Of a stretch of 4,669 bases of DNA, positions 628-4,669 are shown piece after piece. The stretch is from a virus. Its lineage: Duplodnaviria; Heunggongvirae; Uroviricota; Caudoviricetes. The position numbers and the translations under genes are program-made. Position 1 is the first letter of the stretch. Each line of letters opens with the position of its first letter. The notes below the pieces were generated by a model. It did no database searches. It was not told the DNA's origin and saw only the letters and a list, made by a program, of their open reading frames with translations. The stretch is taken from the IMG/VR virus record IMGVR_UViG_2565956719_000007; one strand, 5' to 3'.

Positions 628-652
628 AAAAAACCCACCTGACGGTGGGTTT
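628..652. terminator. Bidirectional rho-independent terminator between convergent genes
   Basis: AAAAAA-CCCACC-TGAC-GGTGGG-TTT: a 6-bp GC-rich stem with a 4-nt loop, an A-run on one side and a T-run on the other. It sits between the + strand stop at 600-602 and the minus-strand stop at 651-653. Confidence 0.6.
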
Positions 653-1100
653 AGTCAAACATAGTGTTTCTAAAGTCTCTCGCATACCCTGCTAACACTC
701 TCATTCTATTATGATTGTTAGCAGACATGTGAGCTACAGGATGAAAAAGAGCAATCAATGAATACCTGTTCTCATCAAAAAGATTTTGTGCATAAACGAG
801 AGCGGTATTGGATGTTTTATGCCACTGCAACTTTTGCGGTGTGCTGATATCTGTGCCATTTTTTATTGGCTCAAATTTATTTTCACCAATTGCTAAATGA
901 AGGTGCATAAGGCCTGCATCTTCAATATCAGGAGGTCGATGATAAGAGGTGTCTCTGCCAAAATAGCTGGGCAACGTTCCCGTAGACTTGTAGATGATAA
1001 AATCATCTACAAGTGTTTGTTTTAAATCAGGAAACTCAACAAAAACCGGGGAGAAAAAATAGTCAAAACTATCCTGATTATATTCCACGGTTACTTGCAT
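651..1100 (-). CDS. YafO-family-like toxin (putative ribosome-dependent mRNA interferase), 149 aa
   Basis: ATG at 1100 is preceded by GAGGT with 5-nt spacing, and that SD overlaps the upstream gene's TGA stop. From memory of E. coli YafO the protein shares motifs: IIYKSTGTLPSYFGRDTSY with ISYKRDGVLPDTFGRD, MHLHLA with HIHLA, LQWHKTS with LRQWSKTS, and a similar length. Family assignment is unverified. Confidence 0.55.
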   Translation of the reverse strand: MQVTVEYNQDSFDYFFSPVFVEFPDLKQTLVDDFIIYKSTGTLPSYFGRDTSYHRPPDIEDAGLMHLHLAIGENKFEPIKNGTDISTPQKLQWHKTSNTALVYAQNLFDENRYSLIALFHPVAHMSANNHNRMRVLAGYARDFRNTMFD

Positions 1101-1108
1101 GTTTTACC

Positions 1109-1675
1109 TCAGTGGAAGTTACCAGAGTGAAACACACGAGTCCCGTGCTCAGCAAGCGCACGCAAACCAGCCATATCTACGGAACTATCAAAAACAACCG
1201 GAACACATGAGCGTTGTTTAATAAGACTATTCAGGTTGGTTACGGCAGATCTGGCATCAGCAACAACGATATAGATATCTCTTGCGATCTCTTTAAAATC
1301 AGCAGAAGCTTCTTTGAATACCGATTTCATTGCCCCTTCAAGTCCTCTCAATTGATGCTCTATCAATCGAGACTTTTCTGGTTCAATGATAGACAACACA
1401 TTGTCTACATTCTCATCGGTAGCGTTTGCAAGAACACGATAAGCGTATTTCAGCATTCGAGACAATTCTTTAATCGAAGACACCGCCTCATGAAGCTCAT
1501 CATTAGCCCGTTCACTGCTGAATGAGGATTGATGGTAAGCGTGCTGAACGTTATCAGTAACAACCACCTCACAACTGAACGCAGAAGCTTGCTGTAATAG
1601 CAAACCTATTGCGACTCCAGCTTTGGCAGCGTTCAAGCTAAACATTTCATCAATCCCATTAGTCTCATTGCTCAT
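1109..1675 (-). CDS. Hypothetical 188-aa protein, first gene of the operon; candidate antitoxin or partner of the YafO-like protein, no recognisable domain
   Basis: ATG at 1675 is preceded by AAGGAGGT with 5-nt spacing, so I prefer it to the TTG at 1705 used by the ORF track. Its stop at 1109-1111 lies 8 nt from the next start. The protein is acidic and probably helical, with no HTH or nucleotide-binding motif evident by eye. Confidence 0.7.
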   Translation of the reverse strand: MSNETNGIDEMFSLNAAKAGVAIGLLLQQASAFSCEVVVTDNVQHAYHQSSFSSERANDELHEAVSSIKELSRMLKYAYRVLANATDENVDNVLSIIEPEKSRLIEHQLRGLEGAMKSVFKEASADFKEIARDIYIVVADARSAVTNLNSLIKQRSCVPVVFDSSVDMAGLRALAEHGTRVFHSGNFH

Positions 1676-1850
1676 ACAAACCTCCTTCTTATCGGAGATT
1701 ATCAATAGCTATGCATCCATTGAATACACGCTATGCGCAATAAGTTTACGTCACGTGATATCATTATGCAACCACCGTTCTATCACCGACTAACTTTACT
1801 CCCACTCCTATACATCATCTGGTATCCTGCGCAAAACTAAGGAGGTTGGT
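1676..1850. promoter_or_regulatory. Divergent intergenic control region between the minus-strand operon and the + strand membrane-protein gene
   Basis: A 175-bp AT-rich gap between divergent starts. On the minus strand a candidate sigma70 promoter is TTGCAT (1771-1766), a 17-nt spacer, then TAAACT (1748-1743). The spacer holds two overlapping 8-bp palindromes, TCACGTGA (1751-1758) and TGATATCA (1756-1763). On the + strand a possible extended -10 TGgTATCCT lies at 1820-1828, before the SD at 1839-1845. Promoter calls are weak matches. Confidence 0.4.
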
Positions 1851-4575: not shown

Positions 4576-4600
4576 TGAACCGCCCCGGGAATCCTGGAGA
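4576..4600. repeat. Terminal inverted repeat (left end) of the right IS copy
   Basis: TGAACCGCCCCGGGAATCCTGGAGA is the inverted partner of 69-93 and begins with the TG dinucleotide typical of IS3-family ends. Confidence 0.85.
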
Positions 4601-4629
4601 CTAAACTTCCTGAGAAAGAGGTAAACAGG

Positions 4630-4669
4630 ATGACTAAAAATACTCGTTTTTCCCCCGAAGTCCGTCAAC
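4630..4669 (+). CDS. IS3-family transposase OrfA, N-terminal fragment (continues beyond the window)
   Basis: ATG at 4630 with a canonical SD; translation is [13 protein letters not shown]. It was missed by the ORF track because it runs off the window edge. Confidence 0.8.

Follow-up and report, generated by a model that had tools for sequence, protein, structure and literature searches.

The stretch of DNA analysed here (IMG/VR virus record IMGVR_UViG_2565956719_000007; 4,669 bp in all, hereafter the window) matched chromosomal P22-like prophages of Escherichia coli at 100% identity, e.g. those of strains APEC O1, S88 and ATCC 11775. The matching E. coli prophages are integrated at a tRNA-Arg gene, adjoining intS. 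A pair of genes on the minus strand, at positions 651-1675, encodes a toxin of the YafO family and, upstream of it, a partner protein that is a putative antitoxin. A two-gene operon had been proposed here in a sequence-only reading of the window, and both open reading frames (ORFs) were found as proposed. The two small genes are adjacent, co-directional and tightly coupled, with the putative neutraliser first, which is the layout of type II toxin-antitoxin systems. The features of the operon are as follows:

1771-1743, minus strand: candidate sigma-70 promoter, TTGCAT-N17-TAAACT; weak, with 7 of 12 consensus positions, as read from the sequence
1679-1700, minus strand: predicted 7-bp RNA hairpin, AAUCUCC pairing with GGAGGUU, which would sequester the Shine-Dalgarno (SD) sequence of the partner gene
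1681-1687, minus strand: ribosome-binding site (RBS) of the partner gene, AAGGAGG, 5 nt before the ATG; its GGAG is conserved in all homologous leaders
1109-1675, minus strand: partner gene, an ORF of 188 amino acids from ATG; putative antitoxin
1101-1111, minus strand: coupling junction, CAC-TGA-GGTAAAAC-ATG; the partner stop codon lies within the GAGG SD sequence of the toxin gene, with an 8-nt gap
651-1100, minus strand: YafO-family toxin gene, 149 amino acids; predicted mRNA endoribonuclease, from its match to PF13957
626-652, minus strand: intrinsic terminator, AAACCCACC-GUCA-GGUGGGUUU followed by a U-run; it begins inside the toxin stop codon

The 149-amino-acid protein was matched by the Pfam profile PF13957 (YafO_toxin) with 78.9 bits against a gathering (GA) cutoff of 25 (E 3.4e-22; profile positions 3-101 of 101), so that the YafO-like character proposed for it was upheld by a significant profile match. 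The hallmarks on which that proposal had rested, YKSTGTLPSYFGRD, HLHLA and LQWHKTS, were all present. BLASTP comparison with YafO of E. coli K-12 gave 38% identity (E 7e-20). In an alignment of 31 toxins, K-12 YafO included, the protein kept all 15 family-invariant residues (D33, F34, Y37, P44, F47, G48, Y53, H66, H68, Q92, L101, Y103, P121, H124 and F143), which include the FGRD, HxH and PxxH motifs. The same alignment revealed an N-terminal extension of about 17 residues that is conserved in this toxin subfamily and missing from K-12 YafO. With the equivalog model of YafO (NCBIfam NF007377) the toxin scored 79 bits, under the cutoff of 153. Judged from these scores, the toxin is a member of the YafO family and not an ortholog of YafO. 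It is labelled 'type II toxin-antitoxin system YafO family toxin' by the Prokaryotic Genome Annotation Pipeline (PGAP). The predicted secondary structure comprises two N-terminal helices, three strands and C-terminal helices. A sequence search of the PDB found no solved relative of either the toxin or its partner.

The upstream protein had been described as acidic and unrelated to the YafN antitoxin, and both descriptions were borne out. It is mildly acidic (isoelectric point 5.47); none of Pfam, NCBIfam and PADLOC gave it a significant family, and a comparison with YafN detected no similarity (E 36). Searches of Pfam and NCBIfam gave no PhdYeFM hit and no helix-turn-helix, ribbon-helix-helix, AbrB or Phd domain, and the SocA_Panacea domain (Pfam PF13274) is likewise not present. 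K-12 YafN is a 97-amino-acid protein of the Phd/YefM family (PF02604), in contrast to the 188-residue, all-helical partner found here. As far as these comparisons reach, the partner is unrelated to YafN or to any described antitoxin family. It belongs to PHROG 8416, of 'unknown function' (E 2e-96), and all public sources label it 'hypothetical protein'. The family is tiny: a word-indexed search of 5.8 billion proteins yielded six clusters, and a full profile search yielded 23 representatives among 1.84 billion cluster representatives. The AlphaFold2 (AF2) model of the partner (predicted local distance difference test score, pLDDT, 73; predicted template modelling score 0.65) is all-helical, with six helices and a confident core at residues 54-156. 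The most conserved parts of the protein are the N-terminal helix GLL[LM]QQ, a central QLRGLEG and the last ~30 residues, S-x-ID-M-x-x-L-x-x-LA-x-HGT...FH. This C-terminal tail, which ends in F-H, was modelled with low confidence, as expected of a segment that might fold only upon binding.

The N-terminus of the partner varies within the family. Met11 does not vary among the close family members and is kept by most of the wider enterobacterial ones, in which a mostly basic extension with a constant length of 10 residues precedes it (partner residues 1-35 correspond to 1571-1675 of the window, minus strand). Distant homologs (among P0031-P0043 and L049) begin directly with a signal-peptide-like sequence (e.g. 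...AALA/E, ...AASA/Q or ...GAMA/E). Some gene callers place the start of the partner at the internal Met, and alternative starts or isoforms are possible.

The partner gene and the toxin gene were always found together. Diverged homologs of the toxin (55-70% identity) were all preceded directly by a gene for a protein of 183-249 amino acids, 34-39% identical to the partner. Among the toxin-subfamily loci drawn from viral contigs, GTDB genomes and metagenomes, a partner-family ORF stood immediately upstream in all of those with upstream DNA (48 of 48), usually with an 8-nt gap; these loci include Pseudomonas (toxin 43% identical) and Orbaceae (33%). Starting from the other gene, the four most distant detectable relatives of the partner (E 5e-9 to 3e-4) were each located directly upstream of a PF13957 toxin, and every partner-family gene examined lay directly 5' of a YafO-type toxin, giving 30 distinct pairs from Enterobacterales, Pseudomonas and Orbaceae. 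The adjacency was also seen in phage HK639 and on Klebsiella plasmids. The module was carried by 55 complete E. coli genomes (1.0% of 5,426); all 55 had both genes, and neither gene occurred alone.

The two families have also diverged together. The distance matrices of partner and toxin were correlated with r = 0.89 over the 30 distinct pairs, a value reached by none of 2000 Mantel permutations, and the partner has diverged about 1.3 times faster than the toxin. Both reading frames are maintained in homologs with 23-40% (partner) and 34-70% (toxin) identity to those of the window. A chance adjacency, or a non-functional remnant in which the 188-amino-acid ORF has nothing to do with the toxin, could draw on nothing except the partner's lack of annotation; 30 distinct and highly diverged pairs with a fixed junction, co-divergence and open ORFs effectively refute it.

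The stop codon of the first gene had been read as embedded in the SD sequence of the second, and the TGA indeed lies within the GAGG, with a gap of 8 nt. This arrangement, F-H-TGA-GGT(N5)-(A/T)TG with its 8-nt gap, was kept in most of 26 distinct loci, and in 16 of the 26 the toxin starts with a weak TTG. The conserved junction and the weak toxin start imply that the partner is made in excess of the toxin. The partner gene itself has the strong AAGGAGG RBS that had been noted in the sequence. The same order, with the neutraliser 5' of the toxin and a very short gap, is found in yafN-yafO of K-12.

In the leader of the window (1745-1660, minus strand) a fold of -27.5 kcal/mol was predicted (z -3.85), in which the AAGGAGG SD sequence is paired. 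The CUCC..GGAG pairing was invariant in 13 leaders of other clades; since the pairs do not vary, they give no evidence of covariation. The layout of the candidate promoter is kept in the Salmonella locus L020 (TTGCAG-N17-TAGACT), and a consensus scan of 1676-1850 called no promoter. About 130 nt 5' of the partner gene are conserved in most family members outside E. coli (3290-3420 in L003 and L005; 2290-2420 in L023, L026, L030, L033, L036 and L043; and others). The elements in these leaders are, in order, the palindrome TTGCTCA-N5-TGAGCAA, which covers a -35-like box, then a -10-like box (TAnnAT), a small hairpin, a GC hairpin followed by a U-run, a GTCAGAGGTACTCC box and the invariant CUCC..GGAG pairing at the SD sequence; the whole resembles an attenuator or a small-RNA-like leader. 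Many of the leaders of other clades carry the palindrome over the -35-like box, and in the stem of their U-run hairpin five of five pairs vary yet stay paired, four of the five by changes on both sides. Neither the window nor four homologous loci had a match in Rfam. The features of the leader suggest, from sequence and predicted folding, attenuation or translational control of the operon. At the other end, the strong terminator at 652-626 (-14.9 kcal/mol, z -3.06) is common to the toxin gene and a convergent ClpP-like gene, head to head.

Frameshifts had arisen independently in three alleles of the toxin gene, each beside an intact 188-amino-acid partner gene:

L021, 3001-3451: toxin frameshift allele, intact partner gene
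L060-L063 (P0019): toxin frameshift allele, intact partner gene
L064 (strain SF-088), 301-757: toxin frameshift allele, intact partner gene

The lesions are an insertion of 1 nt, a mid-gene frameshift resulting in a product of 114 amino acids, and a deletion of 1 nt. The P0019 allele occurred on at least nine contigs, with an intact partner in four of the four places shown. None of the loci examined combined an intact toxin with a broken partner. This pattern of decay in the toxin alone implies that the partner protects. It also bears on the question of whether the partner might be an obligate helper of the RNase instead, i.e. a chaperone, an adaptor or the specificity subunit of a two-subunit enzyme. 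Strict co-occurrence, translational coupling and co-divergence are equally expected of obligate hetero-oligomers, and, in contrast to many antitoxins, the partner is a large, well-folded protein. We nevertheless regard a helper as quite unlikely. Frameshift alleles were confined to the toxin, the order with the partner first and the weaker toxin start correspond to a design for antitoxin excess, and sister phages carry a recognised antitoxin-toxin pair at this position (see below). In addition, the homologous YafO is toxic alone and is neutralised by the product of the upstream gene (PMC11980606).

The two genes were found as a cassette at many different sites. In P22-like prophages and others, the cassette is located next to immI (arc/ant), as in the window, L008 and L053. 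It lies immediately 3' of a CI-type repressor gene, and co-directional with it, in L056/57, adjoins an integrase gene in L054, and is inserted between the Q antiterminator and holin genes in L005 and among head and tail genes in L003. In the cultured phage HK639 it corresponds to gp17/gp18, between the tape-measure/lipoprotein genes and the minor-tail genes, and in L006 it occupies a non-phage chromosomal site. On Klebsiella IncFIB plasmids (43 records) the cassette is flanked by IS5 elements (IS, insertion sequence). In one of these, plasmid p1-0213293972 of Klebsiella pneumoniae (L059, 4540-7062), the partner is 37% identical to that of the window and the cassette stands between two IS5-family transposase genes, adjoining lacZY. 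The cassette therefore also moves on plasmids, where it is possibly part of a composite transposon.

Two sister P22-like phages, EC.P3 and phiv205-1, have another gene pair in the slot that the cassette occupies in the window, in the same orientation; a SocA_Panacea (PanA) antitoxin gene comes first and a toxin gene second:

L052, 4562-5433 (EC.P3): PanA gene, then a toxin gene of 140-160 amino acids
L051, 4560-5426 (phiv205-1): PanA gene, then a toxin gene of 140-160 amino acids

Homology between the window and the sister phages carrying this other cassette stops at base 652 of the window. Both kinds of cassette lie between the ClpP-like gene and the gp16-type gene on the same strand, with the antitoxin upstream and the toxin beside the common terminator. 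The slot is therefore a hotspot for swappable toxin-antitoxin cargo, and the two cassettes are functionally analogous as such cargo, whereas their proteins are unrelated: the toxins of the sister phages are not YafO-like and showed only a weak match to the C-terminal part of NsnC in PADLOC. The Panacea domain is promiscuous, in contrast to the present partner family, which was found only with YafO-type toxins.

The upstream neighbours of the operon in the window, beyond a small membrane-protein gene, are ejection genes of the P22 gp16 type and gp20 type. The G+C content of the toxin gene (0.378) and of the partner gene (0.432) is below the 0.47-0.48 of these ejection genes, in accordance with the AT-rich patch that had been reported beside them. 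Copies of the cassette in or near late operons (between the Q and holin genes in L005, at head-tail genes in L003, L008 and HK639) and its co-directional arrangement with the ejection genes in the window would suit a function in the lytic cycle, with an RNase and its regulator acting in phage development, e.g. in the turnover of host or phage mRNA late in infection, and silent in the lysogen. We consider such a function very improbable. An own terminator, a candidate promoter and AT-richness are hallmarks of a moron; copies are also found 3' of a CI repressor gene, by integrase genes, on plasmids and at a non-phage chromosomal site; and the cassette is dispensable, as sister phages carry another in its place. 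In some strains, including the source of the window, it is intact although the prophage is riddled with IS3 elements that have truncated structural genes.

The operon is probably a type II-like toxin-antitoxin cassette, mobile and self-contained, whose antitoxin belongs to a new family and which a P22-like prophage carries as 'moron' cargo. Transcription would start at the weak promoter near 1771-1743 and end at the terminator (652-626), giving a single transcript. The helical partner of 188 amino acids would be translated from its strong RBS, and the YafO-family endoribonuclease of 149 amino acids by coupling across the 8-nt junction, leaving the partner in excess. We infer that the toxin is toxic when free and that the partner binds and neutralises it directly, the likeliest contact being the conserved C-terminal ~30 residues. 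Should the supply of the partner fail or the partner be displaced, free toxin would cleave mRNA and arrest translation, as YafO does; phage-induced shut-off, loss of the element or proteolysis are possible triggers. Judged from its position, the cassette might serve abortive infection or exclusion for the benefit of the lysogen, stabilise the phage or plasmid that carries it, or both. A role in phage defence is plausible in view of the cargo hotspots and of the PanA-toxin cassette in the slot of the sister phages. The genomic positions would favour an abortive-infection or exclusion role expressed in the lysogen, and the plasmid copies would fit element maintenance. As positional comparators we take exclusion or abortive-infection genes carried as prophage cargo, rexAB of lambda, sieA of P22 and gp15 of HK97. 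The cassette lies at comparable sites (downstream of CI in L056/57, the immI slot, the tail region of HK639) and is likewise AT-rich with its own terminator, but its proteins bear no sequence or fold relationship to the products of those genes.

Several observations weigh against a toxin-antitoxin cassette. The asymmetry of decay comprises three events only, with a chance of ~0.09 under neutrality; because of this small number it supports the model and is not decisive. A search with PADLOC-DB v2 gave no hit for the toxin and, for the partner, only a weak coiled-coil-type match to the tail of ZorA (E 0.004, 14 bits), and nothing characterising this pair or the partner family was found in the literature. 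The AF2 model of the toxin, built with 15 homologs, was poor (pLDDT 52.5). The top Foldseek ranks for it belonged to the RelE superfamily (HigB2, Cami1, RelE and HigB), all with E >= 1 and not significant; given the low pLDDT, these fold matches are unusable as evidence. YafO has been placed in the RelE/ParE (BECR) superfamily by a recent review (PMC11980606), and the predicted secondary structure and the Foldseek ranks of the toxin are compatible with RelE/HigB-type BECR toxins, without the model demonstrating that assignment. At 188 residues, the partner is roughly double the usual size of an antitoxin. Fold searches with its model, the remote-fold check that the sequence-only reading had called for, returned generic helical bundles only. 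That reading had also seen no DNA-binding fold in the protein, and none was recognisable by profiles or in the model, although an all-helical model with a pLDDT of 73 cannot exclude DNA binding.

Regulation at the DNA level is affected as well. The promoter containing palindromes that had been proposed was sustained in part: three 8-nt palindromes do lie upstream of the partner gene, a modest enrichment (shuffle P ~0.03), and TGATATCA and TCACGTGA fall within the spacer of the candidate promoter, but, in addition to the negative promoter scan, the palindromes were not conserved in L020, the nearest diverged homolog, and there was no conserved operator in the clade of the window. The palindromes were set aside as evidence of an operator or of autoregulation. 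Canonical type II autoregulation is unsupported, because the partner has no recognisable DNA-binding domain and the clade of the window no conserved operator.

The last points against a cytoplasmic antitoxin concern the N-terminus of the partner. Residues 19-27 form a conserved hydrophobic stretch, followed in most members by a small-x-small motif at 30-32, and in the distant homologs P0031, P0034, P0036, P0041 and L049 the non-polar run extends over 12-19 residues and the 12-residue hydrophobicity reaches 2.0-2.2, values that lie within the range of textbook signal peptides and would be odd for a cytoplasmic antitoxin. An alternative is that this segment links the partner to the inner membrane or the Sec pathway, with the pair acting as a membrane-coupled sensor and an RNase effector in superinfection exclusion or in abortive infection upon perturbation of the envelope or of secretion. 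The sieA gene, a membrane exclusion gene which we take to occupy this slot in P22 itself, and the small membrane-protein gene divergently adjacent to the operon would be in keeping with such a function. We consider the alternative unlikely. By a crude physicochemical comparison (criteria: a positive n-region, an h-region of at least 10 non-polar residues and an AXA site), the partner of the window fell below eight textbook signal peptides both in its non-polar run (9 vs 13-18) and in its 12-residue hydrophobicity (1.9 vs 2.0-2.6); its n-region is net negative (charge -2) and its hydrophobic moment low, globular-like. A signal peptide in this protein was rejected on run length, hydrophobicity and charge, and is kept only as part of this minority explanation. 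Moreover, the segment GLLMQQ is far more conserved than is usual for signal peptides, homologs from Pseudomonas are without the hydrophobic segment, and an exported partner would be unable to neutralise a cytoplasmic RNase, in conflict with the protection that the toxin-only decay implies. It is distinctly improbable that the protein is an antitoxin tied to the inner membrane or Sec by its N-terminal segment, the RNase firing once the envelope is disturbed by an incoming phage; on that view the pair would act as a switch sensing DNA injection from the sieA slot of P22, with the 5' leader adding control at the RNA level. The sequence-only reading had left the choice between a new antitoxin class and a sensor-toxin pair. 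The antitoxin is favoured by pairing, coupling, co-divergence and decay, and the sensor-toxin pair gained no direct support.

YafO is among the least understood mRNA interferases of E. coli, and its ribosome dependence is debated. The K-12 pair is part of the SOS operon dinB-yafN-yafO-yafP, in contrast to the cassette, which is cargo of phages and plasmids. In 2011, Leplae et al. (PMC3141249) linked YafO toxins only to partners of the Phd type and to others proposed by guilt by association, which were untested, and a survey of E. coli in 2023 listed 13 partner clusters for YafO_toxin, 8% of them known (PMC10790755). The annotation of the toxin is already public through PGAP; new, according to the sequence comparisons, is a dedicated and unusually large helical partner family of ~190 amino acids that is specific to YafO-type toxins. 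The advance is incremental, because the swapping of partners among type II toxins is well known and the E. coli survey had already found most YafO partners to be 'novel'.

The remaining features of the window flank the operon:

66/94-602, plus strand: ClpP-like serine protease gene (PF00574, E 2e-11), convergent to the toxin gene, with a common terminator
1851-2201 (RefSeq 1872-2201), plus strand: small membrane-protein gene, divergent from the partner gene; the product has 116 amino acids, is basic (isoelectric point 9.7) and hydrophobic (grand average of hydropathicity 0.90)
1-93 and 4578-4669 (last 92 bases), same orientation: ends of IS3-family elements, a right end (...CCCGGGGCGGTTCA) and a left end (TGAACCGCCCCGGG...)

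In intact prophages, the ClpP-like gene forms an operon with the gene for an Arc/Mnt-family repressor of immI. As a phage ClpP homolog beside a toxin-antitoxin hotspot, it could have a bearing on antitoxin turnover. The 116-residue membrane protein had no Pfam, PHROG or PADLOC family. Its gene accompanies the cassette in E. coli prophages and not in other contexts, and because its position is that of sieA in P22, the product is a candidate superinfection-exclusion membrane protein. Both neighbours were considered as components of the module and rejected, being absent from the other contexts of the cassette; the ClpP-like gene is not a component because sister phages with a different cassette keep it. 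The start contexts of the divergent genes, partner and membrane protein, are near-identical and inverted (1672-1687, AAGGAGGTTTGTATGA; 1839-1854, AAGGAGGTTGGTGTGA), forming 16-nt arms that are 88% complementary and 151 nt apart.

The two IS3-family ends have the same orientation; in the source strain, an IS copy therefore stands on either side of the 4.5-kb segment with the cassette. One copy has taken the place of the immI side and cuts into the ClpP-like gene; the gp20-type ejection gene is disrupted by the other. In related strains, the decaying prophage contains several IS3 insertions.

This operon is a worthwhile experimental target on account of its strict pairing, its location in a phage hotspot, its conserved leader and the signal-peptide-like segment of the partner. 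If validated, the partner would represent a new antitoxin fold and the pair a tractable model for the neutralisation of YafO-type toxins. The cassette would then also be a candidate abortive-infection module of prophages in extraintestinal and avian pathogenic E. coli (ExPEC/APEC) lineages, represented here by APEC O1, S88 and ATCC 11775.

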